From a virus (lineage: Duplodnaviria; Heunggongvirae; Uroviricota; Caudoviricetes): a DNA stretch of 64,000 nucleotides. Position numbers and translations under genes: made by a program. Positions 16,497 to 51,534 of this stretch are shown here, piece after piece. Location: positions 1 to 64,000 of the IMG/VR virus record IMGVR_UViG_2827179085_000005. One strand, given 5' to 3'. The notes beneath the pieces were generated by a model that was given only the letters and a program-made list of their open reading frames with translations, was not told the DNA's origin and ran no database searches. Every line of letters begins with the position of its first letter. Positions within the stretch are counted from its first letter, which is position 1.

Positions 16497-16498
16497 AA

Positions 16499-18589: not shown

Positions 18590-18621
18590 AATGGTGGGAG
18601 AAATAGAGTGAACAAAAATAC

Positions 18622-19428: not shown

Positions 19429-19431
19429 AAC

Positions 19432-19590
19432 ATGAATGAACAACAACTTCGTGAAATGCAGGAAAGCATAGTAAGACAGATTGGACACAAGGTTGATGTA
19501 TATTACAACGAAAATAGTGGGGTTGTTGGGGTGTTTCATCATAACACGCCACCTACACCAGCAACGCTAATTCAACTAATTCATTGCTAG
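19432..19590 (+). CDS. hypothetical small protein (52 aa)
   Basis: ORF with RBS. Confidence 0.25.
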   Translation: MNEQQLREMQESIVRQIGHKVDVYYNENSGVVGVFHHNTPPTPATLIQLIHC

Positions 19591-19594
19591 GAGA

Positions 19595-19903: not shown

Positions 19904-19957
19904 GAGCGAAAACAATGACAATCAAACAACGATTGACTGATGCAATGAAGGAAAGCT

Positions 19958-20365
19958 ATGCGCAATAAAGATAAGGTAACTCTGACAACTGTTCGCATGG
20001 TCATTGACCGAGTTCAGAAGAAAGAGAAGGAAATGCTTCGTGAACTATCTGAGGAAGAAGTTATGCAAGTGCTTCAAACATTCAAGAAGCAGACTGACGA
20101 AGAGATGGATGCATTCAAGAGCGTGAACAACCATGAGAAGGTTGCAGAACTTCTTGTCAGCAAGAAGTTCGTTGAATCCTTCCTTCCTCAACAAATGAGC
20201 GAGATTGAAATTAGAAATCTTGTCATCAACGCAATTGAAAGCATGTATAGTGTCGGAAGAACACCGAATAAAGGATCGGTTATGAAAGAGGTCATGCCTT
20301 TGGTTAAAGGAAAGGCTGACAACAAGCTTGTCAATCAAATCGTCACTAATCTCTTGCAATCATGA
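19958..20365 (+). CDS. GatB/YqeY-domain protein (frameshifted; true N-terminus MTIKQRLTDAMKE at 19915 in another frame)
   Basis: RNKDKVTLTTVRMVIDRVQKKEK matches YqeY family; upstream ORF 19915-19968 encodes the YqeY-like N-terminus. Confidence 0.5.
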   Translation: MRNKDKVTLTTVRMVIDRVQKKEKEMLRELSEEEVMQVLQTFKKQTDEEMDAFKSVNNHEKVAELLVSKKFVESFLPQQMSEIEIRNLVINAIESMYSVGRTPNKGSVMKEVMPLVKGKADNKLVNQIVTNLLQS

Positions 20366-20571
20366 TGACATTGAGAGAACAATATCTCGCTGAAAGCAAG
20401 AGCGTGAAGGATTGTGTCAAATGGCTGAATAAGCGCATCAAGGAGAAAAAGGAAAACGTTTCTTATGATTACTATTCTCCCGATAATGCAATCATCGAAG
20501 AGATGGTGAATATAAAAATTGGCTTGGAGAAATACGCAAAGAAGCTGAAACATATGGCTAACGAGGTGTGA
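20362..20571 (+). CDS. hypothetical protein
   Basis: ORF. Confidence 0.4.
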   Translation: MMTLREQYLAESKSVKDCVKWLNKRIKEKKENVSYDYYSPDNAIIEEMVNIKIGLEKYAKKLKHMANEV

Positions 20572-20573
20572 GC

Positions 20574-20726
20574 ATGTTCTGGAAAAAGAAGAAGCCTTGT
20601 GAACATGAATGGACGATAGTTAAAGTCGGAAGTGGTTACTATTCTGAAATCTACTGTCCTAAATGCAACTGTAGCATGAACGTTCGGAAGAGTGAAGCAG
20701 ATTCCTATGTAAAAAATCAAAGCTAA
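20574..20726 (+). CDS. small Cys/His-containing protein (50 aa)
   Basis: GAGGTG RBS; CEHE...CPKCNC. Confidence 0.3.
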   Translation: MFWKKKKPCEHEWTIVKVGSGYYSEIYCPKCNCSMNVRKSEADSYVKNQS

Positions 20727-20772
20727 GAAAAGAATATCTCGAAAAAATCAAAGAAGAGAGTAGGGATACAAC

Positions 20773-20973
20773 ATGAGTATTCAAGTTCCTGTTGAAGTAA
20801 CGAATTGTGACCAGTGTCCTTATGCAGAAGCTCGTAAGGTATGGACTGCTGATTCATGGGAAGATGTTCGGGCAATCAAGTGCAAACAGCTTGGAAGAGA
20901 CGTTTACGAATACTTGGACTGGTATGATAAGTCACCTGTACCAGATGAATGTCCATTCAAAAGAAAGGGTTGA
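20773..20973 (+). CDS. small Cys-rich protein
   Basis: CDQCPY...C...CPF. Confidence 0.35.
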   Translation: MSIQVPVEVTNCDQCPYAEARKVWTADSWEDVRAIKCKQLGRDVYEYLDWYDKSPVPDECPFKRKG

Positions 20974-20977
20974 TCGT

Positions 20978-21193
20978 ATGAGTCAAGTAAGTCAAGCGGA
21001 TATTGAGCAAGTTATTGAACGTATCAAGAGAGGTTATGACCCAGAGGTTTGCGGATTTACAGCAGAAAGATCGCGTGGTAATTCCAACGATGTATTTGAA
21101 GATGGACACGATGCAGGATATTCTATGGCTTTATATGAGATAGGTAAGATGCTTGGCATCGACCTACCAGAACCAGATGAACCAGAGTATTAA
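20978..21193 (+). CDS. hypothetical protein
   Basis: ORF; chosen over overlapping alternative-frame 20807 start. Confidence 0.35.
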   Translation: MSQVSQADIEQVIERIKRGYDPEVCGFTAERSRGNSNDVFEDGHDAGYSMALYEIGKMLGIDLPEPDEPEY

Positions 21194-21213
21194 TTAAAGT
21201 AAAGGGAGTTGGA

Positions 21214-21438
21214 TTGCTTATGAGCGCATATGCAACGATTTATCTACGAATTGATGAAGGCAAGTATAAGACAAATGAGGGTATCTTTACTTTCCGCAAT
21301 GACTTGAAGGAAGTATATGGATTACAAGCCAATCCGAAGTTTGATCTGTTGTTCAGCATATCTTGGGAACAAGGACACGCACATGGTTTGACAGATGTTC
21401 TTGGTGTGTTTAATGACCTTGTAGAACTGGTTCGATAA
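21214..21438 (+). CDS. hypothetical protein
   Basis: ORF with GGGAG RBS. Confidence 0.4.
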   Translation: MLMSAYATIYLRIDEGKYKTNEGIFTFRNDLKEVYGLQANPKFDLLFSISWEQGHAHGLTDVLGVFNDLVELVR

Positions 21439-21445
21439 AACAAAA

Positions 21446-21461
21446 ATGCTAAAGAAAGTAT
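21446..21461 (+). repeat. conserved 16-nt motif ATGCTAAAGAAAGTAT directly upstream of ligase RBS
   Basis: sequence. Confidence 0.5.
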
Positions 21462-21474
21462 TGGAGGAAAATGG

Positions 21475-22767
21475 ATGCAGAATATTATTGATGTATTCAA
21501 GCAAATCAAGGAAACATCGAGCAGAACAGGTAAAGAAGCCATCCTTAAAGCCAATAAGGATAATGAAGAGTTTCGTTTTATTCTCAAATTTCTTTATAAC
21601 CCATTCGATCTGACTGGTATCGGAAAAAAGAAACTACAGAAGTTCGATGATTTTATTGCAGAGGAAGAAATTGTTGAAGAGTTTACAGATGTATTTGATC
21701 TTATCAGATGGTTACGTTGGAACAAAACTGGTTCAGATGAAGTTGTTAAGGCAGTTGCAAACTTTATAAATGAACATGATGGAGAGGTTCGTGACTTCCT
21801 GAAAGAAGTTATTACGAAGTCATATAAGTGCGGAATTACCGCTGGAACTATAAATAAAGTTTATAACAAAGGAACAATCCCTGATTTTGCTGTACTTCTA
21901 GCGAAGGCGTACAAAGATCATGGACACAAGCTTAAAGGACGATTCTTCATCACATTAAAGCTTGATGGCATCCGTTGTGTTGCTATCAAGAAAGATGGTG
22001 TTGTTCAGTTCTATACTCGACAAGGACAACCAATTGATGAACTGATTGACATCGAAGAAGAGATTGCGAAAAAGTTCCCTGACAACTTTGTTCTCGATGG
22101 AGAATTGTTGCTTGAAAATCCGAAAGGATTGCCAAGCGATGAGCTGTTCCGAGCTACACAGAAAGTTGTTCGTAAAGATGGCATAAAACAAAACTTGGAG
22201 TTTAATGTCTTTGATGGTCTTCCACTAGAAGAGTTTTTGGAAGGTAAATCCAAGTTGAAGTATGAAGCAAGACGTAATGAAATCGAAGACATATTCACTT
22301 ATGCAAGACCACAGTTTATTCGTCAATTGCCTGTTCTCTATGTTGGCGAAGACAAAGAGCAAATCAGCATCATCCTGCAAGATGTGGTTGCTAAAGGTCA
22401 TGAAGGACTCATGATTAACACCGCTAATGGTTTCTACGTAACTAAACGTTCTGATGTGCTGTTAAAGGTCAAGGAAATGCACTCAGTTGATCTGAAAGTC
22501 GTTGGTTATGAGGAAGGTAGCGGTAAATATACAGGCACTCTTGGGGCGCTTATTGTGGATTACAAGGGCTACGAAGTCAAAGTAGGATCTGGATTCACTG
22601 ATGCAGATCGCAACATCATCTGGAATAAGATGTTGGATTCCATCGTTGGTCAAATCGTCGAAGTGCAGTACTTCGAGGAATCTACAAATCAGGATGGCGG
22701 TATCTCTCTACGATTCCCTGTATATTTGCGGATTAGAGATGATAAAGATGAGGTAAGTTTGCACTAA
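21475..22767 (+). CDS. ATP-dependent DNA ligase
   Basis: motif I KLDGIR (KxDGxR) and downstream adenylation/OB-like regions. Confidence 0.8.
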   Translation: MQNIIDVFKQIKETSSRTGKEAILKANKDNEEFRFILKFLYNPFDLTGIGKKKLQKFDDFIAEEEIVEEFTDVFDLIRWLRWNKTGSDEVVKAVANFINEHDGEVRDFLKEVITKSYKCGITAGTINKVYNKGTIPDFAVLLAKAYKDHGHKLKGRFFITLKLDGIRCVAIKKDGVVQFYTRQGQPIDELIDIEEEIAKKFPDNFVLDGELLLENPKGLPSDELFRATQKVVRKDGIKQNLEFNVFDGLPLEEFLEGKSKLKYEARRNEIEDIFTYARPQFIRQLPVLYVGEDKEQISIILQDVVAKGHEGLMINTANGFYVTKRSDVLLKVKEMHSVDLKVVGYEEGSGKYTGTLGALIVDYKGYEVKVGSGFTDADRNIIWNKMLDSIVGQIVEVQYFEESTNQDGGISLRFPVYLRIRDDKDEVSLH

Positions 22768-36428: not shown

Positions 36429-36901
36429 TGAACATGAAAGGCTGTATAGTCTGTGATGTGAAACATCAAGGGTTTTATGTGTCTTCTGATGAGGTCTACA
36501 TGTGTCCTAGACACAAGAAGATTCTGTCGGAAGAAGATGAAGAACTGTCAAGAAAATTTAAGAAGAATCGTTTTGTAGTTGAAGGCAAGACAGCAAGAAT
36601 GTCTGTTTACAACAAGCAGTTCAAAGAAAAACATTATAAATTCATCGTTGATACCGAAGATATACCACTTCTCGAAGATATCCGTTGGAGAGAAGACGAA
36701 GATGGTCACGCAGTTACAAGCGTAAAGAAAGGGAAGAAAGTACTTTCACTAAAGCTTATGGACTATCTAATGTATCTTCGACATGGCATAAAATCCCCAT
36801 CATATCACCCTAATTGCAACAATTACGATTGCCGAAAGTTGAACATAAGAGTCATGAAAGACAAGCGAAGAGAGCGTTCAACTGTCAGGAATATCATTTA
36901 G
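36428..36901 (+). CDS. HNH-type (HNH_3-like) homing endonuclease-like protein
   Basis: C-terminal HPNCNNYDCRKLNIRV resembles HNH_3 motif; sits immediately upstream of polymerase gene. Confidence 0.4.
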   Translation: MNMKGCIVCDVKHQGFYVSSDEVYMCPRHKKILSEEDEELSRKFKKNRFVVEGKTARMSVYNKQFKEKHYKFIVDTEDIPLLEDIRWREDEDGHAVTSVKKGKKVLSLKLMDYLMYLRHGIKSPSYHPNCNNYDCRKLNIRVMKDKRRERSTVRNII

Positions 36902-36915
36902 GAGTTGATTATGAA

Positions 36916-39900
36916 TTGTGTCTATCTTGCGGTAATGTCTTAATCAATCATGCTGTACCAAAGAGTTACGATGGATTTGTAAACCTTCATCTTCACACAG
37001 CTTACTCATTGCTTGATGGCATGAGTAAGCCCGAAGATGTAATTAAAAAGGTTGCAAGTCTCAATCAAACTGCTGTGGCTGTCACAGAGCATGGGAATGT
37101 TTTCTCTGCTGTGAAAGTCCATAAGCTTGCAAAGAAAGCGAATATCAAACACATCTATGGGGCAGAGTTCTACGTCACTGAGGACAGGTTCGTCCAAGAT
37201 AAAACAAAGAAATACTATCACTTAACTGTTCTGGCTAAGAACGAACAGGGAAGACGAAACATCAATAAGCTTGCATCTCTTGGTTATCTTGAAGGATTCT
37301 ACTTCAAGCCACGTATTGACCATGAATTGTTAAAGAAGTATGGCGAAGGATTGATTGTCCTCTCTGGTTGCATGGCAAGTGAAGTTCAGCAAGCACTTGC
37401 AGGAGGAAAAATCGGAGATGGTGACATTGAGATTACTGACGCTAATAGAGAAAATGCCAAGGCAATTATCAGAGCCTATCGTGAGATTTTTGGTCGTGAT
37501 TATTATTTGGAGGTACAAGCCCATCGCGACTACAGGCAACAACAACTTAATAGGGCGATTGTTGATCTGTCTGTGGAATTGGGTATCGAATATGTAGCAA
37601 CGACTGATTCTCATTTCGTAGAGGAAGATGACCTTGAACTGCATGGGATTTTCATTCAGATCGGTACGAACCGCGAAGCAGGGGAGACTTATCAGGACAC
37701 TCATATCATGGATGCTGGTGAGGTAACGAAGAAGCTTCTTGGTTCCATGACATATGATGAAGCTGAACTAGCTGTACGTACATCTCTGATTATTGCAGAT
37801 AAATGTAATGTTGATCTTCCGTTATCAGAGCCAATCATCCCTCACGTTGATATTCCAGATGGGTTCGACGATGAGATTGCATACTTGAAGGAATTGATTA
37901 ATAAGGGATGGAAGCGTAGAGAAATTAGGAAGAAGAAAGATGTTCAGAAATACAAGGAGCGCCTTAACTACGAGTTTAATTCCATCACTAAGATGGGGTT
38001 CGAGGGATACTTCTTGCTTGTAGAGTCATATGTAAACTCTGTAAAACGTCGAGGTATTGCGCGTGGTTCTTCTGGTGGAAGCTTGATTGCTTACTTGTTA
38101 GGCATCACTGAGATTGACCCGATTCCATATGGCTTGTACTTCGAGCGATTCATCGACGTTGGCGCACTTGATCTGTTGGAGAATGGAACAATCACTCGTA
38201 AAGAGCTAAAGATTCCCGATGTCGATAGCGACTTTGGAACGACCGATAGAGACAAGGTTGTCGATGGTATCGTTAAGAAGTATGGCGAGGATAAGTTCGC
38301 GGCTATCGGACAATTCGGTTACATTTGGGACAAATCAGCAGTCAAAGACGTTGGTCGAGTGCTGAACATTCCTTTCTCTGTGACCAATCAGATGACTCAA
38401 CAAATGGGCGACCTCACAATTACATACATGCGCGAAGCAGGATTGTTCCAGCATTGGTTTGAGGAATATCCAAAACTGTTCGAGTATGCAGAGAAGATTG
38501 CAGGATTGCCGAAAAGCTTTGGTGTTCATCCATGTGGAAAGATCATTTCCATCAAAGAGATTGACTACTACACAGCCATTGCATCGAACGATGGAACGAT
38601 CGTTTTCCAAGGAGATATGGACGACACTGATGATCTTGGCTTGGTGAAGGTTGACTTGCTTGGTCTGAAATCCATTGACGTTATCTACGACACATTAGAG
38701 ATGATTGGCAAGGATTACGACTACATCAATCCCGATAAGCTTGACTTCACTGACATAAATATTCTTCGACTCTTTCGAGAAGGAAGAACAGATGGAGTAT
38801 TCCAGTTCGAATCAATCGGTATGAAGGAGACGCTTCGACAGGTTCATCCTGATGGCATTGAGGACTTGGGAGTGTGTAATGCGCTATTTCGTCCTGCATC
38901 CATGAAACATATCGAGCATTACGCTAAACGTAAGAAAGGCTTGGAGAAATACTCGTATTTGCATCCAGACCTTGAAGCAGTTCTCAAAGCAACAAAAGGT
39001 ATTATGACGTTCCAAGAGCAATTGATCGAGATTGGCTGGATTGGCAAGATGAAAAATCCTGACAAAATCCGCAAAGCAACAGGCAAGAAGTCGATGCAAT
39101 TAATGACCGAATGTAAGACAGAATTGTTTAAAGGATTGGGACGTAGGGGATGGACACAGGAACAGCTTGAAACACTGTGGGAAACGATGATCGACTTTGC
39201 TTCTTATTCCTTTAATAAATCACACGCAATGGCTTATGCAATTATCGCATGGCAAATGGCAAAACTTAAACATTATCACCCTGTCGAGTTCATGACTGCA
39301 CTACTGAACAGCAAAATCGGAAAAATCGAAGAGTTGTCTCACTATCTTAGTGAGTGCAAACGCATGGGTATCCAAGTGAATGTTCCAGATATCAACGGAA
39401 GCCAAGGAAAGTTCTCAGTGAAAAATAGCGAGATTGTATTCGGACTTCTAGCGATTCGTGGTATTGGTGAGCCAACTGTTGAGTTGATCGATAGACTTCG
39501 GGAAGCACATGTTAAACCATTTACATCTTTCTCTCAGTTTTTAGACTTTAACACTATGTTGTACGAAGAGAGCAAAAAAGTGAGTGAGATTGTACAGCAA
39601 GACATTACAATCGACATGCTTCCATCTGATGCGATAATCAACCTCATCAAGTCTGGTGCATTTGGAACAAACAAGAATGAGTGTTTGACTGAATTTGCTA
39701 ATGCGACATACATTCCATTGAAGTGGATTCCGAAAAAGCCTATCCCAAGCAAATCTGATTTTGCGAAGGCTGGATATCCGATTTCTGACGAGCAATTCGC
39801 AGACAAAATGGTACGTAGAGATGTGTTCAACGAGTACAAGTATCAGGACTACTTGAAGAAGGATACAGATCGTAGACAGAAGCACATCGACAACTTCTTC

Positions 39901-40323
39901 GAGAAATACGTTGGTGACATTGAGTTCTATGAGTTCGATACGATGGGTGCATACCTCACAATCAGTCCTTTCGACAAGTATATCAAGTCAATCAAAGACT
40001 TTTACACTTACGAGGATGGTACAGATAAGGTTTTGGTTGTTGGTACTATCATCGGCAAGGAAGTAAAGAAATCATCCAGAGGTGGGCAATACGCAAAGAT
40101 TCAAGTGCTGACTCCACATGGAGTTGTACAAGCAAAAGCCTATTCTAATGCATATAGCGAGTACAAACACATGCTGGACAAAGGTTCTACTGTCGTCATG
40201 CTAACGAAGCGAAATAAAGATGAAGCAATCATTTCTAAGATGAAGACATTCCACGATTGGAAAACTCTCATCGACAGAAAGATGGCTAAGAAAATACAAG
40301 ATAAAAATAAGGGAGTGTTGTAA
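36916..40323 (+). CDS. DNA polymerase III alpha-subunit-like replicative polymerase (PHP domain + DnaE-like core)
   Basis: N-terminal PHP motif VNLHLHTAYSLLDG; ~1135 aa; conserved pol III alpha core; start uncertain (TTG 36916 after AGGAG). Confidence 0.85.
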   Translation: MCLSCGNVLINHAVPKSYDGFVNLHLHTAYSLLDGMSKPEDVIKKVASLNQTAVAVTEHGNVFSAVKVHKLAKKANIKHIYGAEFYVTEDRFVQDKTKKYYHLTVLAKNEQGRRNINKLASLGYLEGFYFKPRIDHELLKKYGEGLIVLSGCMASEVQQALAGGKIGDGDIEITDANRENAKAIIRAYREIFGRDYYLEVQAHRDYRQQQLNRAIVDLSVELGIEYVATTDSHFVEEDDLELHGIFIQIGTNREAGETYQDTHIMDAGEVTKKLLGSMTYDEAELAVRTSLIIADKCNVDLPLSEPIIPHVDIPDGFDDEIAYLKELINKGWKRREIRKKKDVQKYKERLNYEFNSITKMGFEGYFLLVESYVNSVKRRGIARGSSGGSLIAYLLGITEIDPIPYGLYFERFIDVGALDLLENGTITRKELKIPDVDSDFGTTDRDKVVDGIVKKYGEDKFAAIGQFGYIWDKSAVKDVGRVLNIPFSVTNQMTQQMGDLTITYMREAGLFQHWFEEYPKLFEYAEKIAGLPKSFGVHPCGKIISIKEIDYYTAIASNDGTIVFQGDMDDTDDLGLVKVDLLGLKSIDVIYDTLEMIGKDYDYINPDKLDFTDINILRLFREGRTDGVFQFESIGMKETLRQVHPDGIEDLGVCNALFRPASMKHIEHYAKRKKGLEKYSYLHPDLEAVLKATKGIMTFQEQLIEIGWIGKMKNPDKIRKATGKKSMQLMTECKTELFKGLGRRGWTQEQLETLWETMIDFASYSFNKSHAMAYAIIAWQMAKLKHYHPVEFMTALLNSKIGKIEELSHYLSECKRMGIQVNVPDINGSQGKFSVKNSEIVFGLLAIRGIGEPTVELIDRLREAHVKPFTSFSQFLDFNTMLYEESKKVSEIVQQDITIDMLPSDAIINLIKSGAFGTNKNECLTEFANATYIPLKWIPKKPIPSKSDFAKAGYPISDEQFADKMVRRDVFNEYKYQDYLKKDTDRRQKHIDNFFEKYVGDIEFYEFDTMGAYLTISPFDKYIKSIKDFYTYEDGTDKVLVVGTIIGKEVKKSSRGGQYAKIQVLTPHGVVQAKAYSNAYSEYKHMLDKGSTVVMLTKRNKDEAIISKMKTFHDWKTLIDRKMAKKIQDKNKGVL

Positions 40324-43777: not shown

Positions 43778-44211
43778 AGAAAAAGAAAATACTTATTATA
43801 GCTTCTGCACTTTCGCTTCTCTTGATTTTTCCTGCTTGCGGTAAGGAAGAATCGTCTACTGGACAGACTCTTGATTCTAAAAGTGAAACGAGAAGTCTTC
43901 TTAGCAAAAAGGATGAGAGCAGTCAAGACCTGTTTGAATGGCTTGGATATGAGGAATTTGAAATCAAGCGCGAACTAAACAAAAGCGATAGAGCTACTGC
44001 TAAAATTACTAACCATTCCAGTTACGATCTTGAAGGTCATATTGCATTAGTTGTGTATGATGAAAATATGGCTATCCTCGACACACAGTATGTAGGTCTT
44101 CCTAAAGTTGGTCTTAAACCAAATGAGACATTTGTTGTTGATGAAATTATACATAAAGACAATTACAACACCGTTAAATTTGCTGATGTCAACATGCTTC
44201 GTCATAAATAA
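43774..44211 (+). CDS. putative lipoprotein
   Basis: signal peptide with LIFPACG lipobox-like. Confidence 0.45.
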   Translation: MKKKKILIIASALSLLLIFPACGKEESSTGQTLDSKSETRSLLSKKDESSQDLFEWLGYEEFEIKRELNKSDRATAKITNHSSYDLEGHIALVVYDENMAILDTQYVGLPKVGLKPNETFVVDEIIHKDNYNTVKFADVNMLRHK

Positions 44212-44294
44212 TTTTAAATATTTTAAAATTATTTGATATTTGCTTAAAACTTTATAATGACTGTCCAATCATTGAGTAAAGAGGATGAATAAAT

Positions 44295-44792
44295 ATGAAT
44301 AACAACCTGTATGTAATCCAAATACCAAGGTCAGAAGTTGAAAGCAAAGATATTGGAACTATCACGCACTACATATCTCAGTTAGAAAAAATAAAAGCTC
44401 CAAGTCAATGCGTAGAAATAACCTTCTCAGGATTTGACGATACGACAGAGGAAGTATTCGAAATCAAAGATATTCGAGACTGGACAACGATTGCTTTGAG
44501 AGAAGCACCAGAGATTCTGTACTATACGTCACTGCCAATTGGGACAACTACACGGTTATTATCTTGCGTTTATGATATTGAGACTGTTTCCTCAAAGCGG
44601 ATGGATGCCTATGAAGCTGTTGAGTACGCCGCAATTCATGGTGACCTCCCACAGCAACCAGTTATCATAACTATCCCAGATGATGAACGTTCAAGATTGT
44701 ATGGAGCTATTAAGAGTTACGGCATAAAGCGAAAAGATTCGTTCGGCGCAGGAGTGATCGTTAAATCGTTGAAGGAATTGTTTGGCGATTAA
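44295..44792 (+). CDS. hypothetical protein
   Basis: GAGGA RBS. Confidence 0.45.
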   Translation: MNNNLYVIQIPRSEVESKDIGTITHYISQLEKIKAPSQCVEITFSGFDDTTEEVFEIKDIRDWTTIALREAPEILYYTSLPIGTTTRLLSCVYDIETVSSKRMDAYEAVEYAAIHGDLPQQPVIITIPDDERSRLYGAIKSYGIKRKDSFGAGVIVKSLKELFGD

Positions 44793-44835
44793 ATCATTCT
44801 CAATTTACACACCCATAAATAACATGGTCAAATAT

Positions 44836-44874
44836 AAAAGGAGTAACCACCAAACAGTAATTACTCCTTTTATT
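44836..44874. terminator. bidirectional terminator between convergent genes
   Basis: AAAGGAGTAA...TTACTCCTTT flanked by A-run and T-run. Confidence 0.6.
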
Positions 44875-44876
44875 AC

Positions 44877-45449
44877 TTATTTGTTTATTATCTTATCTAG
44901 TACAGCCGAAAATGAATTGTATTCTTCTAAATCGCCTCGCTCATTCTGTACACAGTAAATCACGCTTACATTATCAATGATCTCCAATCGTTTGCTTTCC
45001 TTTTCAATACTATTTTTCAGCTCGTTAATTTCTCTTTCAACTTTTGCAACCTCATCCTCAGACGATGAATAACAGGATACACCACCAATCAATCGTGCGC
45101 CACTTTCACGCAACATTATATTAACTTTTTTGCGATTTGCTTCGTCAAATAGCCCAAATACCGTGAAGCACCCCATGAAATTTAGTTTGGCATCTGGTAC
45201 ATCAAGAGTGAATTGTAGATTTTTGTATGATGACATATGTTTTACATTTGTATATGAGTTTCCATCATTATTCTCAACATATGAAGAAGAGGTCACATTG
45301 AAACCAAGCTCTTTAAAGAATCTCTCAAATTCGACAGCAGCTTCATTTCGTCGTTCCGAAACTTTCTTATCAATAACTGCATAACTCTTCTTTCTGATTC
45401 CCGATAGCTTTTCGGTCAGATCTTCTTTTTCCATCATCTTCTTCAACAT
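44877..45449 (-). CDS. hypothetical protein (190 aa)
   Basis: ORF on minus strand in accessory island. Confidence 0.5.
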   Translation of the reverse strand: MLKKMMEKEDLTEKLSGIRKKSYAVIDKKVSERRNEAAVEFERFFKELGFNVTSSSYVENNDGNSYTNVKHMSSYKNLQFTLDVPDAKLNFMGCFTVFGLFDEANRKKVNIMLRESGARLIGGVSCYSSSEDEVAKVEREINELKNSIEKESKRLEIIDNVSVIYCVQNERGDLEEYNSFSAVLDKIINK

Positions 45450-45684
45450 TTTAAATGACCACCTTTGTCAATATATTGTATGTCTTATTAGTTTCACTAC
45501 CTATATGTAGTTCCCTACTAAATCATAATATTCAGAACCGATGCTTGTCAAGATTTTTATCATAATAATTTCCTACATTAACAATTTTATTTTTTCTCAT
45601 TTGAATACGGTAAATAAGTACTTCTTTGAATTTGCAAAAGTAGTATTTATATTAATTTATTTACATCGTATTATTCAACAACAA

Positions 45685-45713
45685 TTTACATGCCCTTCAC
45701 AACATGGTAAAAT
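45685..45713 (+). promoter_or_regulatory. sigmaA-type promoter TTTACA-17-TAAAAT
   Basis: upstream of RNPP-type regulator gene. Confidence 0.45.
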
Positions 45714-45724
45714 ATAGGTGGTGA

Positions 45725-47026
45725 ATGTTAGAAGGAGGGATGGTATTGGATGCAACAATCATTAAAACAATTGGAGAGCTAGTCCAAGACACAAGGCGCT
45801 CATTAAATATGACGATCACTCAATTATCAGAATTGTCAGGTGTCTCTAGAGGGATAATATCAAGAATCGAAAATGACGAAGTAAAGCGCCCTGAGTTTTC
45901 GTGTGTACATTCGTTAGCAACGGCATTGGAGATCCATTTTGAAACGTTGGTTAATTATTACGTCGAGATCGAGAAAAAGGCTGAGACATTGTTTAATATG
46001 CTCCAAACAACGATTGCAGAAGGCAGTAGTACTGAACTAATCAAGAAAGTAGCCACAAAATACCTCAACGCTCCGAATGAAGACAGCTTAGATTTAACCG
46101 AAAAGCTATATCACTATATCAACTCCTTAGAAGACACCTCCATTAAATTATCACTGTATAACCTCATCATTGACTATTCACGATCACATGGGATCATGCC
46201 CTATATTGCAAAAGGATTGTATCAACGATACCTAATTGAGCGGTACGACTTTTCCAAGTTAAAAGAAACCTATCAAAATGGGAAATACGTTCTCCAATAT
46301 GTTGATTTCTTATCGTCCGAAGAGCGAGTATGTCTATATTACAAGTTAGCTATTCATGCATATACTCTAAATTATCACAATGAATGCATTGATTACTGTA
46401 AGAAAGTATTGAAAAACGGAGATAGTCATTTCAAAGCAGATGCACTTGGCGTCCTTATCGATGCGTATTTCAGCATTGGAGCATACACTGAATCAGAACT
46501 GTACCTACTGCAATATAAAGACTTTTCTTATCCGCATACAAAAGAAAATGTCGTTCTTATGGATGCGTTTTACATGGTTAGAAAGGGAGAAACGGCAAAA
46601 GCAGAGGAGCTACTGTTATCTTTTTTACAGACGTGCAGCAATGACTCAATTATTCCTGCATCTAAACAATTACTTCAATTGTACTTACAGCAGAATAATA
46701 TTGAAGGAGCAAAAGCTATTCTGGAAAATGAAAGGGCAACAGCATCTCTCGTAGACAAAAGAAATGCATTAGTTTGTGCTACATATGCTGATTATCTTTG
46801 GATCAAGGCAGAGTATTATAAGACTGTGGGCGACGTAGACAAAAGTATTGAACACATGGTAGAATGTGCCTTATGGTACTCCAAAATAGATGATGCGTCA
46901 AAGGAAAAAGAAGCTTTGAATACCGCAATGCATCTCCATTTTATGAATAACGTTTCACCTCAGTCTACACTTGATAAATTAAGGGATTACTATCAGCGAA
47001 GCTCTAAATTGGAGGGATTGTCATGA
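45725..47026 (+). CDS. RNPP-family quorum-sensing regulator (N-terminal XRE HTH + TPR-like helical repeats; NprR/PlcR/AimR-like)
   Basis: LNMTITQLSELSGVSRGIISRIENDE XRE HTH; ~370 aa of helical-repeat sequence; likely real start TTG 45746 after GGAGGG. Confidence 0.65.
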   Translation: MLEGGMVLDATIIKTIGELVQDTRRSLNMTITQLSELSGVSRGIISRIENDEVKRPEFSCVHSLATALEIHFETLVNYYVEIEKKAETLFNMLQTTIAEGSSTELIKKVATKYLNAPNEDSLDLTEKLYHYINSLEDTSIKLSLYNLIIDYSRSHGIMPYIAKGLYQRYLIERYDFSKLKETYQNGKYVLQYVDFLSSEERVCLYYKLAIHAYTLNYHNECIDYCKKVLKNGDSHFKADALGVLIDAYFSIGAYTESELYLLQYKDFSYPHTKENVVLMDAFYMVRKGETAKAEELLLSFLQTCSNDSIIPASKQLLQLYLQQNNIEGAKAILENERATASLVDKRNALVCATYADYLWIKAEYYKTVGDVDKSIEHMVECALWYSKIDDASKEKEALNTAMHLHFMNNVSPQSTLDKLRDYYQRSSKLEGLS

Positions 47027-47133
47027 AAAACAAATTTAGTAAATTGGTTTTTAACACCCTTCTGGTTGCGGTTCTTGTTTCCGAAGCAGTAGTCCAGTTT
47101 ACTGGTGGCTCTGGAAGTGTTCATCCGTTTTAG
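47023..47133 (+). CDS. secreted signalling pro-peptide candidate (36 aa; Phr/NprX/PapR/AimP-like)
   Basis: GGAGGG RBS 6 nt upstream; ATGA overlap with regulator stop; MKNKFSKLVFNTLLVAVLVS signal-like N-term, C-terminal ...GSGSVHPF. Confidence 0.5.
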   Translation: MKNKFSKLVFNTLLVAVLVSEAVVQFTGGSGSVHPF

Positions 47134-47150
47134 GCAGTGAAGAGAGTAGC

Positions 47151-47190
47151 ACCCAATATGGTGTTACTCTTTTTCATTTTTCGACAATGT
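47151..47190 (+). terminator. rho-independent terminator
   Basis: AGAGTAGCACC-CAATAT-GGTGTTACTCT + TTTTCATTTTT. Confidence 0.65.
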
Positions 47191-47268
47191 GTTGAAGTGT
47201 AATATTTTCACATATCTTACTAGAACGTGCATTATACTCAGAAAGAAGAGATAGTGTACGCGAGGTGA

Positions 47269-47430
47269 GTGATTATAGACTCTTTAGAGAATAGAATTAT
47301 TGAACTAAGGAAGAAACTTAAAGAAATTGTTCAGATTAAAGGTGGCTTTATAGACGAAGAAGTAGTTGAAATTAGCCGACAACTGGATGAATTAATACTA
47401 GAAATGCAGAAGAAACGATCAAGAAGTTAA
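47269..47430 (+). CDS. Spo0E-like small protein (53 aa)
   Basis: SRQLDELILEMQ matches Spo0E-family SQELDxLI motif; GTG start, GAGGTG nearby; not in supplied ORF list (<60 aa). Confidence 0.4.
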   Translation: MIIDSLENRIIELRKKLKEIVQIKGGFIDEEVVEISRQLDELILEMQKKRSRS

Positions 47431-47688
47431 CACTTGTTACTAACAATATCCGAACGAACGTCTTCCTGGCACAGCTCTAATCTCTCTTTAATTACGAACG
47501 TTAGGGTTGTGCCGGCACAGATAACATACGTGTATTTAAGTAATTCCGACTGGCCGAGGTTGGGATTGTTTTTGTTTATATTGATAGAAAACAGCCTATT
47601 AGTCGGGCTGTTCTCTACAGGATACCAAGACATATGATATAATATAAATACCATGCTATTTCTAAAGTTGAAAAAGGGGATTATACAA

Positions 47689-48012
47689 ATGGCATTTAAA
47701 ATTACTAACAAAGAAGAATTTGATGCATTAAAAAATAAGCCAGATGTCAAAAAAGTAGAATATGGCGCACAGTTTGATACACTGCTAAGTGAAGGTGAAT
47801 TAATCTTCTTTGAAATGTCAGATGGTTATGGATCGTTTAGAATTAAAAAAGGTTTTGGGCTTAGTAAGCCAAAGGGTGAAATTTATATGCTAAAATTTGA
47901 GGAAAAAATTCCTCAAATATATGAGAACAAAGATATCAAAAAACTTAAAGGTATCTTCGATAACTTTTTCAAAAAAGAAGTAGATATGTTCTACATAGAA
48001 GGATTAAGATAA
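47689..48012 (+). CDS. hypothetical protein
   Basis: AAAGGGGA RBS; extended -10 TGaTATAAT upstream. Confidence 0.4.
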   Translation: MAFKITNKEEFDALKNKPDVKKVEYGAQFDTLLSEGELIFFEMSDGYGSFRIKKGFGLSKPKGEIYMLKFEEKIPQIYENKDIKKLKGIFDNFFKKEVDMFYIEGLR

Positions 48013-48199
48013 ATCATCAACAATACGTACAGCCTTATCATGATTTGGTGAGGCTGTACGCGGTGAATACCATTATATATGTATTTTTTACATATAGACT
48101 ATTTCATCAAAGTCGTGTTTTGTACTAATGTCTTTGACCTTGACTATCTTTGACTTTAAGTCTCCTATCATGCGTTAATCGACACAAAGTTGCGCTTTT

Positions 48200-48232
48200 T
48201 AATAAAAAAACCCTTATTCTGAATAAGGGAAA
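48200..48232 (-). terminator. rho-independent terminator (minus strand)
   Basis: CCCTTATTC-n-GAATAAGGG with A7 run upstream on plus = T-run on minus. Confidence 0.55.
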
Positions 48233-48281
48233 TAAATTTGGATTTTCCATCCTTATGTCAGCCAACTATACTAAAATCATG

Positions 48282-48401
48282 TTATGAGGTCAAGATGAAG
48301 AACTGGACTACGCCAAAAACAATTAAGAAGATGACAAGAATTAAAAGAACTGCAACGGTTCTAAGAATAAATTTCAAAATTTTCTTAGTGTCCTGATCCA
48401 T
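48282..48401 (-). CDS. small hydrophobic membrane peptide (39 aa), type I toxin-like
   Basis: AGGAGGTGG RBS 5 nt upstream of ATG; MDQDTKKILKFILRTVAVLLILVIFLIVFGVVQFFILTS; flanked by terminators; candidate TTGTTA-17-TAAAAT promoter at 48465-48493. Confidence 0.4.
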   Translation of the reverse strand: MDQDTKKILKFILRTVAVLLILVIFLIVFGVVQFFILTS

Positions 48402-48430
48402 AAATACCACCTCCTACATTAAATATATTA

Positions 48431-48470
48431 AATAACGGACAACATTATGAGTTGTCCGTTATTTATTTTA
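48431..48470. terminator. bidirectional hairpin terminator
   Basis: AACGGACAAC-ATTATGA-GTTGTCCGTT flanked by AT-rich runs. Confidence 0.55.
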
Positions 48471-48500
48471 CATTAATGACCAATAATTAACAACAACTAG

Positions 48501-49196
48501 CTAATTTGTACCCCAAAACATGTCGTGTTCGATTTCTTTTGTTAAAATGTCTCCGACTCCTCCAACTTCAATCCTTACAGTCAGGTCACCTTTGATTTGA
48601 GCACTTCCACCAGTTTTCTTGCTGTTGATTTGAACTGTCGATTTATTACTGCTGTGTTTGTATGTGTTCATTGGATGAAACCCATACAATCCACTGTCCG
48701 TGGTTGGAGTGCCGATTACTTTATCGTTTTTATCATACTTAGCGATGACAAAGGCTTTCATCCACCAGACTCCCCAGTCGTAAAATTTCGACTCATCTGT
48801 CTTTGTGTATTCCCCATCTGCCAGAATCTCGATTGTTGTTGTATTTTGTACTTGCATGGAAGTGTTATGTGTGGAAAACTCGCTGAAATAGTTAAGTAGG
48901 GCGGCGTATTCATCAACCGAATTGATTTTAATAGAGTTTGTGCCTACGTCTGAAAGCAATTGTGGCTCCCCGCCTCTTGTAAATCCTGTTGCTTGCTCAA
49001 CTTCTGCATACGTGCTAAACTTCCCTGCATATTTCGCAAAATACTCTGTCGGAACAATATCACGTACTGTTACTGGTGACTGTGTTACGACTCTCTGATC
49101 AGGTGATTCAACTGGCTTTGGGCTTGCGGATACTGCCGACATGAACAAGCTGCAACTAAGAAGTAAAGTCAAAGATGCAATAGATACTTTTTTCAT
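48501..49196 (-). CDS. secreted protein of unknown function
   Basis: Sec signal peptide; AGGAGGAATTAG RBS. Confidence 0.55.
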   Translation of the reverse strand: MKKVSIASLTLLLSCSLFMSAVSASPKPVESPDQRVVTQSPVTVRDIVPTEYFAKYAGKFSTYAEVEQATGFTRGGEPQLLSDVGTNSIKINSVDEYAALLNYFSEFSTHNTSMQVQNTTTIEILADGEYTKTDESKFYDWGVWWMKAFVIAKYDKNDKVIGTPTTDSGLYGFHPMNTYKHSSNKSTVQINSKKTGGSAQIKGDLTVRIEVGGVGDILTKEIEHDMFWGTN

Positions 49197-49380
49197 CTTC
49201 TAATTCCTCCTATAATTTGATACATTTAGGAAATACCCTAAATGTTGATCTTAATTTACCATATGCCAAAATACCTGTCTGTCGAAAATTGATGCTATAA
49301 AAAATATTTTTTAGAACTATGTAGTCAAATTGTCGTTTTATGTAATTCTTTTTAGTTCTTTATTATATCTAAAAAATAAA

Positions 49381-49412
49381 AAGATGCCTTATCGGGGCAT
49401 CCAAATTTTTTA
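49381..49412. terminator. bidirectional terminator
   Basis: GATGCC-n-GGCATC flanked by A-run and T-run. Confidence 0.5.
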
Positions 49413-49422
49413 TAACATCTAT

Positions 49423-49707
49423 CTATTCTTTAAGTTTAAGCAAGGTTTGATTATGCATGACGCATGCTTCCTCTTCTGAACTCCAACGTCCAACCATTTC
49501 AGTGGAGCCGTCAGGAGGGAAGATTACAGTCTCAAAAACCTGTTTAGAATTATTTATGCTATTATCTATCCCCGTCCAAATTGTTGAGACAAGAGTTTTA
49601 TCCTCTAAAGTAGTCTGTTCTACGACACGATAATTATCATCTTCGAGTAGATTTGCCCATTTCTCAAATTCCAAAGGATTTCCTTGGCGATCAAAGTGTA
49701 GATGCAT
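49423..49707 (-). CDS. hypothetical protein
   Basis: ORF. Confidence 0.45.
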   Translation of the reverse strand: MHLHFDRQGNPLEFEKWANLLEDDNYRVVEQTTLEDKTLVSTIWTGIDNSINNSKQVFETVIFPPDGSTEMVGRWSSEEEACVMHNQTLLKLKE

Positions 49708-49802: not shown

Positions 49803-50051
49803 TTATTTTCGTCCGAAAATGTCTTCTACAATACCAATAGTGAATCCTACAATTTCAGCAATAGTTTTAGAATCTACCTTGTTTTTTATGTTGTCAGGAA
49901 GCTTGTTATACAGACCGTAAACAATCTCTCCTTCCTTGTTCCGAAGCGTCTCAATCAAGGAACTGATCACAACGTCATAAACCTTGTTCGGTTGTTTAAA
50001 ATAAAGAATAACGATTAGAGCGACAACCAGTAAAGCGATTACGTATTCCAT
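49803..50051 (-). CDS. small membrane protein
   Basis: N-terminal TM MEYVIALLVVALIVILYF. Confidence 0.45.
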   Translation of the reverse strand: MEYVIALLVVALIVILYFKQPNKVYDVVISSLIETLRNKEGEIVYGLYNKLPDNIKNKVDSKTIAEIVGFTIGIVEDIFGRK

Positions 50052-50063
50052 GGTATCATCTCC

Positions 50064-50291
50064 TTATTTCATTTGTACGAGGATTTTCTGCAACAATTGA
50101 ACATAGTCACGCAAATCAGATTTGCTCATCGTATGAGCAATAGAGAACGCTACAGACTCATCGACGCTTTCTAGCTTGATAGTATTAGTATCAGGGTCAA
50201 CGACGATGAGGTTGCGTCTATCTGCGTCAATAGGAATCTGAACCTCTTTGATTACTTCCGAAAAGTCGGAATAACGAACTACTACTTCCAT
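50064..50291 (-). CDS. hypothetical protein
   Basis: ORF. Confidence 0.45.
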   Translation of the reverse strand: MEVVVRYSDFSEVIKEVQIPIDADRRNLIVVDPDTNTIKLESVDESVAFSIAHTMSKSDLRDYVQLLQKILVQMK

Positions 50292-50309
50292 TGACGTTCA
50301 CCTACCTTA

Positions 50310-50531
50310 TTAGATTTTCTGCAATAGCAAGAATAGCTTAGACACAAGACCTTTTTCTGTAAGCCATTCATCACCTTTGTCTTCGAGAATGCCAACCTTC
50401 TCGCCTTTTTCAATTGCTTCAAGGTTTGTAGTGGCGATGCCAAACATAATCGGCTTCGATTTTTCCTCAACAACTACTTTAGGTTCCACCTCAATAGAAC
50501 CTTTACGTCTGTTCTGTACTTTCTCTGCCAT
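50310..50531 (-). CDS. hypothetical protein
   Basis: AGGAGGG RBS. Confidence 0.45.
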   Translation of the reverse strand: MAEKVQNRRKGSIEVEPKVVVEEKSKPIMFGIATTNLEAIEKGEKVGILEDKGDEWLTEKGLVSKLFLLLQKI

Positions 50532-50544
50532 TATAAGCCCTCCT

Positions 50545-51489
50545 TTATTTCTGTGTTCTACTCATGATAGTGAACGTTAAACTAGCCAATTCGCCAGCGG
50601 TGAGCGTACCAGATTCAACTTTCTTCACCCAAACTTCTGGACTATTGATGACTGGTTCGCCATTAGTACCAATGACTTTGTTGTACTTGCGTACACCATT
50701 AATGATTTCATTTTTCTGCCATGTTTCCATTTTCATAGGCTCATCATCCTCATCTTTCTTTTCAATATTTGACCAAACCCAACTACCATCACTAATCTTA
50801 CGAATATTAGCATCAGTCCACTGTTCAGCGTATTTAACAGCATCAGCATACGCTATGAAGTCTTTAAGATACTTATTGCCCTGATATACAGCGTAAAGTG
50901 GTTTAGGCGGTTCTGTAGCTTGGCAATCTGCCAATTCATTAACAACATCTTGAATGAACTGCGCCTTACTGATACCCATGATCTTCAACGCATTCTTGAA
51001 TGGGTCTACCTTACGATCAGGGTCAAGTTCATCATGACCAACAATTTTCTTGCGAGGGTCAATATTAAACTTGTAGCAGAGATACGCATGATACCAAACA
51101 TAACGCTTGTATGCTTCTTTATTATTGATACTACCTTTTTTGTTTGAATAGCAAAGCTCAACACCAATAGCAACATCATTTGCATCTGCACCAAACAGCT
51201 TGTTATCTGTAGGTACGTTGTACAATACATGCCAAGCCTTCTCTGGTGCGCCTGTGGTTGCAGGAATGCATTCGATAATATCATTGTGGTCAATGAACGT
51301 ATGTGCCGAAGCAGATATTTCATTACGAGAATTTTCGTAGTATCCTACATTTCCTTTGGCTGTACTTCCATCGTTCCCTGTGTCGTGAGACACAATAAAC
51401 CCAACGTATGGCATCTTAATACCAGAGCGCCTTTTAGAATTGGGTGTAAGGTACTGCTTCTTGATATCGTATTTCATCTTGAATGACAT
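50545..51489 (-). CDS. N-acetylmuramoyl-L-alanine amidase endolysin (Amidase_2/PGRP type)
   Basis: N-terminal catalytic domain motifs (HDTGN...AHTFID...AWHV) like XlyA/CwlA; C-terminal binding domain. Confidence 0.85.
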   Translation of the reverse strand: MSFKMKYDIKKQYLTPNSKRRSGIKMPYVGFIVSHDTGNDGSTAKGNVGYYENSRNEISASAHTFIDHNDIIECIPATTGAPEKAWHVLYNVPTDNKLFGADANDVAIGVELCYSNKKGSINNKEAYKRYVWYHAYLCYKFNIDPRKKIVGHDELDPDRKVDPFKNALKIMGISKAQFIQDVVNELADCQATEPPKPLYAVYQGNKYLKDFIAYADAVKYAEQWTDANIRKISDGSWVWSNIEKKDEDDEPMKMETWQKNEIINGVRKYNKVIGTNGEPVINSPEVWVKKVESGTLTAGELASLTFTIMSRTQK

Positions 51490-51534
51490 ACCATTACCTC
51501 CTTTAATATACTTTCTTTGGCTTCCGAAAAATAC

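Follow-up and report, generated by a model that had tools for sequence, protein, structure and literature searches.

The plus strand of a 64,000-nucleotide stretch of phage DNA (positions 1 to 64,000 of IMG/VR record IMGVR_UViG_2827179085_000005, hereafter the window) contains, at 45685-47596, a promoter, a gene for a receptor with an XRE-type helix-turn-helix (HTH) and a TPR domain, a 36-codon pro-peptide ORF, a terminator, a conserved regulatory region and a 53-codon ORF of the Spo0E family. This cassette is probably a peptide quorum-sensing unit of the RRNPP type, situated in the accessory region of a Sundance-like phage. Its features exceed chance expectation, as seen from Pfam scores above the gathering cut-offs and from a recurrent gene order. 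A check of ORFs and translations recovered, in place, all the features that a preliminary description of this DNA had named:

45685..45713, plus strand: operon promoter (receptor and peptide), -35 TTTACA, 17-nt spacer, extended -10 TGGTAAAAT
45746..47026, plus strand: receptor gene, N-terminal XRE HTH and C-terminal TPR superhelix, 426 aa from a likely TTG start
47023..47133, plus strand: putative pro-peptide gene, 36 aa, MKNKFSKLVFNTLLVAVLVSEAVVQFTGGSGSVHPF, ATG overlapping the receptor TGA (ATGA)
47139..47184, plus strand: intrinsic terminator of the operon, stem 47139-47174 followed by a T-run (terminator scan and inverted-repeat search)
47170..47268, plus strand: regulatory region of the spo0E-like gene, with the conserved block TTTCATTTTTCGACAA
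47225-47235 and 47251-47261, plus strand: arms of an 11-nt inverted repeat, a hairpin in the RNA fold prediction
47269..47430, plus strand: spo0E-like gene, GTG start, 53 aa, containing SRQLDELILEMQ (Pfam PF09388)
47538..47581, plus strand: terminator-like hairpin downstream of the spo0E-like gene (terminator scan)

Promoter and receptor

In a consensus scan the operon promoter agreed with the consensus in 10 of 12 positions and had the additional TG. The element is kept in about 19 homologous loci. The preliminary description had set the beginning of the cassette at 45685, which is the first base of the conserved -35 hexamer, and DNA homology to Paenibacillus genome loci starts right at this promoter (45682). 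The receptor had been given as a protein of 433 residues. An ORF of that length indeed runs from the first ATG (45725..47026); the TTG at 45746 is nevertheless the more likely start, since it is preceded at 7 nt by AAGGAGG, is conserved across the homologous loci and yields the 426 residues that the 91% identical homologue also has.

Residues 17-78 of the receptor matched the Pfam families HTH_26 (30.6 bits, cut-off 22) and HTH_3 (29.1 bits, cut-off 23), and its TPR matches in Pfam fell below cut-off. The AF2 model has a pLDDT of 90.8, and NprR was its best match in the structural comparison. The protein thus has both the TPR or TPR-like superhelix of RRNPP(A) receptors and the N-terminal HTH of the transcription factors among them, in line with the earlier assignment. 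A search for inverted and direct repeats as candidate receptor operators returned only the operon terminator, which was the sole strong inverted repeat, and AT-rich palindromes upstream of the operon promoter.

Pro-peptide

The small ORF overlapping the receptor stop codon has its own Shine-Dalgarno sequence, GGAGGG, 6 nt upstream of the ATG. Its product begins with a Lys-rich n-region and a hydrophobic h-region (signal-peptide character judged by eye), and a candidate signal-peptidase site follows VSEA. Hence the receptor is accompanied, as in RRNPP(A) systems, by an adjacent gene for a pro-peptide with an apparent secretion signal, and the signal itself is predicted to lie within the C-terminal ...GGSGSVHPF. 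The family was surveyed in 77 related loci with a full-length receptor. In 67 of them the receptor is immediately followed by a small ORF with a signal-peptide-like N-terminus, which agrees with the earlier reading of the window ORF as a pro-peptide gene coupled to the receptor. Family peptides usually end in an aromatic motif, e.g. HPW or HPF: P[WFY], PG[WYH] or [DG][WH] occurs within the last nine residues of 54 of the 62 distinct peptides, and 19 of the 62 terminate in PW. Peptide C-termini and receptor TPR domains diverge together (Mantel r 0.60, 0 of 2000 permutations), a correlation that is confounded by linkage.

It is extremely improbable that no signalling takes place, with a small ORF that goes untranslated or unexported and an HTH-TPR protein that works as a plain repressor. 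Such a reading could appeal to the fact that export is deduced from sequence and to the subthreshold TPR matches. Against it stand the ORF's own Shine-Dalgarno sequence and ATGA coupling, the recurrence of its signal-peptide character and family-specific C-terminal motif in the 67 loci, and the comparison with the copy in the genome of Paenibacillus sp. MER 180, in which all six substitutions of the pro-peptide fall in the signal region and the last 17 residues are identical.

Spo0E-like gene and its upstream region

The spo0E-like gene starts 135 nt past the peptide stop codon. The Spo0E-family motif seen earlier in this ORF was borne out by a match to the full profile (1-42) of PF09388 (E 2.8e-12, 46.9 bits, cut-off 23). 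The hallmark of the family is an SQELD signature with a conserved Asp. Most relatives read SQELD, SQQLD or SQDLD; the window reads SRQLD (S36-R-Q-L-D40), with Ser, Leu and Asp kept and Gln replaced by Arg. The protein also aligns with the Spo0E-like protein 2C0S of B. anthracis across the SQELD motif. A single-sequence AF2 model gave a two-helix hairpin (helices 2-23 and 30-51, pLDDT 79), for which Foldseek returned generic helical hairpins only and was uninformative. The gene is the presumed output of the cassette, and its product is predicted to dephosphorylate Spo0A~P.

A terminator between the peptide and Spo0E-like ORFs, part of the earlier account, is evident as a hairpin with a T-run. 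The intergenic region containing it has an RNA fold z of -5.2, and the stem varies in sequence between loci while its complementarity is kept by compensatory changes. The regulatory region that follows is more conserved among homologous loci than coding DNA, with 82-94% identity where the receptor genes of the same loci share only about 70% of their DNA sequence. The block TTTCATTTTTCGACAA includes a -35-like TCGACA, and candidate -10 elements lie in the same region; the candidate promoters of the spo0E-like gene read TCGACA-N16-TATTTT and TTCACA-N17-CATTAT. The Shine-Dalgarno sequence of the spo0E-like gene, GAGGTGA (47262-47268), is poorly spaced from the start codon; besides GTG 47269, ATT 47272 and ATA 47275 are candidate starts. 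In the inverted repeat at 47225-47261, 90% of alignment cells pair and the spacing of the arms is variable; it has no compensatory double changes and did no better than shuffles, and it may be either an RNA structure or a DNA site. An Rfam scan of 44000-49500 (E ≤ 1) gave no hit. On the minus strand the invariant block reads TGTCGAA at 47180-47186. Considered as a possible Spo0A box, this motif showed no enrichment in the window (14 against 10 ± 3); it occurs in 10 of 47 spo0E upstream regions versus 4 of 47 and 2 of 47 in controls, and we regard it as a weak lead.

Phage context, distribution and bacterial origin

The DNA polymerase encoded in the window is 73.8% identical to that of Brevibacillus phage Sundance, and further phage genes encode RNR, a ligase, RusA, an endolysin and tail proteins. 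From the taxonomy of homologues, the host appears to be a Paenibacillus. A megablast of 44000-49000 against phages had no match, relatives being found at the protein level only, and exact-sequence queries with the peptide and the endolysin matched no record. The ORFs neighbouring the cassette had no useful Pfam or PHROG match, and neither a repressor nor an integrase turned up among them.

The three-gene order receptor-peptide-Spo0E-like is present in 48 of the 77 loci, and 51 have a Spo0E-like ORF no more than 900 nt downstream of the receptor. Paenibacillus and Brevibacillus genomes hold many copies each. Phage genes are absent from the vicinity of the two loci read with called genes, from MER 180 and P. 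alvei, and at the MER 180 contig locus the flanks are free of them over 10 kb. Homologous cassettes are also carried by phages Sundance and SecTim467 and by viral contigs, and a P. agilis locus combines a divergent family member with the lysis genes of the window.

By blastn, 45682-47596 is 91.6% identical in DNA to a contig of MER 180; the similarity stops at 47596, just past the terminator-like hairpin. In the phage DNA around the cassette (44560-49350), short stretches that match the flanks of bacterial cassettes form a patchwork. Judged from these alignments, the cassette was captured from Paenibacillus DNA. The receptors of the window and MER 180 differ by 36 changed residues, 27 of them in the first 128 residues (HTH and linker), as against 50 codons with synonymous changes only. 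The TPR region is 97% identical, and the predicted mature peptide is the same. With the mature peptide and the sensor domain of the bacterial copy kept, the signal would probably be common with the bacterial system; that the phage copy may share the signal of a bacterial quorum-sensing system, instead of using a private phage-to-phage channel, is put forward tentatively. If shared, the signal would let the phage both read and add to host population density, timing the brake on host sporulation and its release.

The close identity to a bacterial locus, the patchwork of flanking matches and neighbouring ORFs of no known function would all suit host DNA taken up recently as a passenger, with no selected role for the phage. 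We consider this unlikely: the three ORFs and both promoters are intact, the receptor codons have changed mostly synonymously, and divergent family members occupy different positions in Sundance, SecTim467, the P. agilis locus and the viral contigs, which argues for repeated selection. A benefit to the phage may be supposed. Among the related phages, those of Brevibacillus have the cassette version characteristic of Brevibacillus and those of Paenibacillus that of Paenibacillus, and its position in the genome differs between them, implying repeated independent capture.

Comparison with known systems

The preliminary description had held the combination of receptor, peptide and Spo0E-like protein to be different from known modules. 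It had in fact been published (Bernard et al. 2021, 2023; Voichek et al. 2020): phage RRNPP systems adjoining spo0E have been reported with the Sundance cassette as an example (10.1101/2021.07.15.452460; PMC10075063), and AloR13/AloP13 has been shown by experiment to control an adjacent spo0E-like gene (PMC7425212). Since the layout had been predicted in a sister phage and its function demonstrated in Paenibacillus bacteria, the window provides a new example and not a new kind, and its value is incremental because the concept is already in print. It adds a second host genus to the phage systems of the receptor-peptide-spo0E type.

The Sundance genes gp120-gp121-gp122 have the same order (receptor, overlapping signal-like small ORF, gap, Spo0E-family gene) and a receptor of the same family (31.8% identity over 87% of the protein). 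The Sundance peptide ends ...TDNPGY, whereas that of the window ends ...GSVHPF. The Sundance cassette lies at a non-orthologous genome position in an orientation opposite to its neighbours, and its nearest relatives are proteins of B. laterosporus (95%), in contrast to Paenibacillus proteins (91%) for the window. Both cassettes are known from sequence alone, and the accessible parts of the supplements of Bernard et al. (2023) mention neither Sundance nor the P. alvei group.

Like AloR13-AloP13 of P. polymyxa, the window has an HTH-TPR receptor gene, a gene for a pro-peptide of 32-50 residues (aloP in the Alo systems) directly downstream and then a spo0E-like gene, which among Alo systems is found in a subset; a C-terminal mature peptide is expected in both. 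Alo13 is the sole system of this architecture with experimental proof. It is chromosomal, whereas the window cassette is phage-borne, and its peptide is SHGRGG where those of the window family end in HPF or HPW. AloR homology was defined by BLASTP at E < 1e-5 (Voichek et al. 2020, PMC7425212). The window receptor reached AloR1, 4, 6, 12, 13 and 14 through the HTH only (E 0.008-0.01) and is therefore not assigned to AloR proper. At the profile level, hhalign related its family to the AloR alignment with 97.2% probability (E 4.1e-11, 367 columns, 15% identity). For P. alvei DSM 29, Table S2 of Voichek et al. (PMC7425212) contains only three plasmid proteins of 346-371 residues; the P. alvei members of the window family, of roughly 430 residues, are missing from that list of AloR proteins. 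The comparison delineates a large family, sister to AloR and so far uncharacterised, within the group of P. alvei, P. thiaminolyticus, P. dendritiformis and Brevibacillus. Insect-associated species belong to this group, and the family is recognisable by the aromatic C-terminal peptide motif.

That the cassette is neither the arbitrium system (AimR-AimP-aimX) of SPbeta-group phages nor a Rap-Phr module, as noted earlier, was confirmed. No AimR appeared among the Pfam, NCBIfam and PHROG matches; AimR resembles the receptor at the fold level only, the window protein has a classical XRE HTH, the peptide ends in HPF and has no arbitrium C-terminal motif, and the output gene is Spo0E-like. Rap proteins are effectors themselves, have an N-terminal helical effector domain and no HTH, and act directly on Spo0F~P or ComA. 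In contrast to the Rap-Phr modules of Bacillus phages and mobile elements such as phi3T, phi105 and pLS20, the receptor here is a predicted transcription factor with an HTH, and the phosphatase-like effector is encoded by a separate Spo0E-family gene; there was no Rap family match, similarity being confined to the common TPR fold. NprR of the Bacillus cereus group (NprR-NprX) is 9% identical to the receptor, with no match at the sequence level. NprR is turned on by its peptide, and the gene that it regulates is nprA instead of a spo0E gene.

Proposed mechanism

We propose that a constitutive-looking sigma-A promoter drives a bicistronic operon, of which the first gene would yield a cytoplasmic HTH-TPR receptor and the second, translationally coupled, the 36-residue pro-peptide. 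This would be exported and trimmed to a C-terminal signal of about 5-8 residues ending ...GSVHPF, which after re-import would bind the TPR groove of the receptor. The receptor would control the separately promoted spo0E-like gene directly past the operon terminator. If the cassette behaves like AloR13/AloP13, whose genes come in the same order, the receptor without peptide would switch on the spo0E-like promoter, which would fall silent once the peptide binds. The predicted effect of the Spo0E-like protein is a reduction of Spo0A~P; infected or lysogenic cells would then be kept from sporulating while the signal is scarce and be freed to do so once it is abundant.

In the Alo13 system, the neighbouring spo0E-like promoter is turned on by AloR13 and silenced by the peptide SHGRGG from 10 nM upwards (PMC7425212). 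This polarity is not safely transferable, since BLASTP to AloR finds the HTH alone. The peptide-bound form of the receptor might instead be the activator of the spo0E-like gene, in the manner of NprR-NprX or PlcR-PapR; a high signal would then block sporulation, and crowded hosts would stay vegetative for phage replication. The peptide-activated NprR as best structural match and the kinship to AloR at the profile level only point in this direction, and the imperfect hexamers of the candidate promoters fit dependence on an activator in either state. We nonetheless find this reversal doubtful, as Alo13, the only tested system with the identical order of receptor, peptide, terminator and spo0E-like gene, is silenced by its peptide (PMC7425212). 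Arbitrium AimR is likewise switched off by its peptide (PMC7425212).

An analogy between the spo0E-like gene and aimX has been drawn (Voichek et al. 2020, PMC7425212). Carried over to the window, it would make the Spo0E-like product an aimX that acts on the phage's own lysis-lysogeny decision and not on host sporulation. This is very unlikely: the output gene belongs to the Pfam Spo0E family, and the arbitrium peptide motif, a neighbouring repressor or integrase and family matches of adjacent ORFs all failed to appear. Host Spo0A~P is the likelier target because the cassette is mainly a bacterial system present in multiple copies, at MER 180 and P. alvei loci with no phage genes nearby. The proposal in the preliminary description that the module couples phage decisions to the Spo0A phosphorelay is accordingly kept for its host side, with Spo0A~P as the likeliest target; its phage side was an extrapolation.

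Phage peptide signalling of the transcription-factor type that steers host sporulation has been predicted from genomes and not demonstrated, and the literature holds no experiment on any member of the window's receptor sub-family or on any phage copy. The window and MER 180 form a natural phage/bacterium pair with near-identical cassettes and the same predicted peptide, and cross-talk is therefore open to a direct test by means of a handful of synthetic peptides and an Alo13-type reporter.

Gene organization of the cassette

The phage-borne quorum-sensing cassette of RNPP type proposed in the preliminary description is real, and its interpretation is supported by the domains of its products, the structural model and a conserved three-gene order; the concept is already in the literature. 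On direct reading of the sequence, all elements lay where they had been placed:

45725-47026, receptor ORF, 433 codons, ending in TGA
47023-47133, peptide ORF, 36 codons, product MKNKFSKLVFNTLLVAVLVSEAVVQFTGGSGSVHPF
47139-47174, terminator 3' of the peptide ORF, a hairpin followed by a T-run
47269-47430, Spo0E-like ORF, 53 codons, GTG start, containing SRQLDELILEMQ

The TGA of the receptor ORF is overlapped by the ATG of the peptide ORF (ATGA), which has a GGAGGG 6 nt upstream. When about 19 homologous loci were aligned over their upstream regions, TTG 45746, preceded by AAGGAGG at 7 nt, emerged as the conserved receptor start, giving a receptor of 426 aa, the length of its closest homologue. 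The left edge first assigned to the cassette, 45685, coincides with the -35 hexamer of a promoter (TTTACA-17-TGGTAAAAT) that is conserved.

Receptor, peptide and Spo0E-like protein

The receptor was confirmed as an XRE-HTH/helical-repeat protein. HTH_26 and HTH_3 scored above the Pfam cut-offs, and an AlphaFold2 model built from 41 homologues (pLDDT 90.8, pTM 0.81) is all-helical, with the HTH followed by a TPR-like superhelix. TPR families were matched only below the Pfam cut-off. Within PHROG, the protein affiliates with phrog_32768 (E 1.6e-69), an uncharacterised phage family. Generic TPR proteins predominated among the Foldseek matches in the PDB, with PlcR, 6ipx (an 'apo form transcription factor') and RapF lower in the list.

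The peptide had no family match in profile searches, as expected at such a length. The assignment of the 53-codon ORF to the Spo0E family held: the whole Pfam Spo0E-like profile is covered (E 2.8e-12, 46.9 bits against a cut-off of 23), and the product aligns to the Bacillus anthracis Spo0E-like protein 2C0S through the signature motif. Its signature, SRQLD, retains Ser, Leu and Asp and carries Arg in place of the usual Gln; the protein was modelled as a two-helix hairpin.

Conservation among homologous loci

The 108 receptor homologues originate almost exclusively from Paenibacillus (the alvei, thiaminolyticus, dendritiformis, popilliae and apiarius group), the best being that of Paenibacillus sp. 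MER 180 (91% identity). Eighty genomic and five viral loci were fetched and scored by script, and counts refer to the 77 with a full-length receptor. A short ORF with a basic-then-hydrophobic N-terminus begins no more than a few bases from the receptor stop in 67 loci, a Spo0E-like ORF follows within 900 nt in 51, and both are present in 48. The peptides form a C-terminal series (...GSVHPF, ...GSVFPW, ...GSIHPW, ...GGIFPW and ...PWIxx, with ...D(N/D)PGY in Brevibacillus phages), such a motif lying within the last nine residues of 54 of the 62 distinct peptides. The more alike two receptors are in their TPR domains, the more alike are the C-terminal 8-mers of their peptides (Mantel r 0.60, 0 of 2000 permutations), a signal part of which linkage alone would produce. 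Several genomes encode multiple paralogues of the family, as is likewise the case for the Alo systems of P. polymyxa. In some bacterial loci (L006/L007 11423-11687, L020 and L022), a second Spo0E-like gene lies a few kb downstream of the cassette, preceded by the same conserved upstream region and without an adjoining receptor.

Regulatory region of the spo0E-like gene

The spo0E-like start lies 135 nt beyond the peptide stop, and this interval is 82-94% identical among loci that share only about 70% identity in their receptor genes. The terminator stem varies in a compensatory manner among homologous loci and is followed by an invariant block, TTTCATTTTTCGACAA, holding a -35-like hexamer. Overlapping this hexamer on the minus strand is a perfect TGTCGAA (47180-47186), the Spo0A-box consensus. 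Since the motif is not enriched across the window and its position upstream of the spo0E-like gene is conserved in the closest sub-family only, a Spo0A box here is only a lead.

Further downstream (47225-47261), the invariant complementary blocks ACGTGCATTAT and ATAGTGTACG end at the Shine-Dalgarno sequence GAGGTGA. They pair in 90% of cells, their spacing differs among loci, and no double compensatory changes occurred in the arms across the aligned loci; the element may be either a 5'UTR RNA hairpin or a palindromic protein site on the DNA. Within 47262-47277, the GTG start abuts GAGGTGA without a spacer, two bases past the GAGG core, and ATT 47272 and ATA 47275 are better spaced. The P. alvei orthologue (L007 7520-7540) is annotated at NCBI with an ATT start, and further orthologues lack a canonical start codon there. 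Given the tight spacing and the P. alvei annotation, the start is uncertain and probably weak; weak or non-canonical initiation of this gene may be conserved.

Relation to described systems

The preliminary description had regarded the combination of receptor, peptide and Spo0E-like protein as different from known Rap-Phr modules; it has, however, already been published. AloR-AloP of P. polymyxa was defined by Voichek et al. (PMC7425212), who showed the promoter of the adjacent spo0E-like gene to be activated by AloR13 and shut off by the peptide SHGRGG, and who also pointed out the parallel with aimX. Candidate RRNPP systems of phages, next to spo0E or abrB, were reported by Bernard et al. 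(10.1101/2021.07.15.452460; PMC10075063), who mentioned Sundance by name and proposed that sporulation is hijacked in a density-dependent way. We found no experimental test of any phage copy in the literature.

Compared with the AloR sequences from the supplement of PMC7425212, the receptor gave BLASTP matches in the HTH only (E ~0.01), whereas profile-profile comparison aligned the full length (97.2% probability, 15% identity). The approximately 430-aa P. alvei members of its family are absent from the published AloR list (PMC7425212). An assignment to AloR proper was thus rejected, and by these comparisons the receptor is placed in a remote sister family.

Sundance encodes a homologous cassette composed of gp120 (receptor), gp121 (48 aa) and gp122 (Spo0E family), the receptors being 31.8% identical. 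In Brevibacillus phage SecTim467 (L002 3977-7412), a single Spo0E gene lies between two different RRNPP systems: a receptor of the present family with an unannotated candidate peptide ORF ending in ...TDDPGY, and a true AloR (37% identity with AloR13) accompanied by an ORF of 45 aa. In phage Jenst (L003 3977-4477), the receptor is reduced to a 166-aa remnant.

Of the possible readings, an Alo13-like circuit carried by a phage has the best support. In such a circuit the receptor would control the spo0E-like promoter, the C-terminal peptide, once exported and re-imported, would reverse this control, and the Spo0E-like protein would lower Spo0A~P in infected or lysogenic cells. Confidence is lowest for the polarity, since the closest homologue to have been tested is only remotely related and the protein that matches best in structure is activated by its peptide.

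Phage context and origin of the cassette

The window is phage DNA and encodes a DNA polymerase (phrog_405), two ribonucleotide reductases, an ATP-dependent ligase, NAMPT, RusA, an endolysin and a large tail-associated protein. The polymerase shares 73.8% identity with its counterpart in Brevibacillus phage Sundance, the sole close phage relative in the collection searched; the exact proteins of the window had no entry in the public collection. As no phage in the collection matched at the nucleotide level, the window seems to represent a Sundance-like phage that has not been described before. Aerobic (NrdA-like) and anaerobic (NrdD-like) ribonucleotide reductases, nicotinamide phosphoribosyltransferase, the ligase and the 1169-aa DNA polymerase are encoded in 5647-22767 and 36814-40323.

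The cassette region (45682-47596) shares 91.6% DNA identity with a MER 180 contig, the similarity beginning at the -35 hexamer and ending just past a terminator-like hairpin 3' of spo0E. The 10-kb flanks in MER 180 contain type I restriction-modification, AbiJ, LysR, dioxygenase and ABC-transporter genes and no phage genes. Of the 36 residue differences between the receptors, 27 fall within residues 1-128 (HTH and linker), the remainder being 97% identical. Correspondingly, DNA identity between 45746-47026 and the MER 180 gene (L004 10001-11281) is mosaic: about 76-88% in 50-nt blocks over the first ~400 nt (HTH and linker), and mostly 94-100% over the remaining cassette. Such a pattern is suggestive of recombination, or of faster change, in the part that binds DNA. 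The peptides differ at six positions, all in the signal region, and share the last 17 residues; two substitutions and one additional residue distinguish the Spo0E-like proteins. With the same predicted mature peptide and a near-identical sensor domain in a bacterial genome, signalling shared by phage and bacterium is plausible.

The Sundance cassette is flanked by thioredoxin/RNR genes on one side and by a nucleotidyltransferase gene on the other. Homologues of these genes are found at 7.8-9.1 kb and 18.6-19.1 kb in the window, whereas the window's own cassette maps to 45.7 kb, close to the lysis genes. The proteins nearest to gp120 are from B. laterosporus (95%, 72% and 69%). Different positions and host-genus-typical versions in two related phages point to independent capture or replacement.

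On a 100-kb viral contig, the receptor is closest to Paenibacillus proteins. A P. agilis N4 contig (L065 2045-3730) is 80% identical in DNA to the lysis region at 49836-51528 (endolysin 85%, neighbouring ORFs 67-81% in protein; 81-85% for the lysis genes), and its lysis region is directly upstream of a divergent receptor of the family (36% identity). Taken as a whole, the 5-kb accessory region resembles a mosaic of host-related DNA. Around the cassette (44560-49350), short patches are 78-90% identical to the flanks of bacterial cassettes (P. alvei, P. suaedae and MER 180), and one of these patches is separated from the cassette by an ORF on the opposite strand (44877-45449, phrog_22061).
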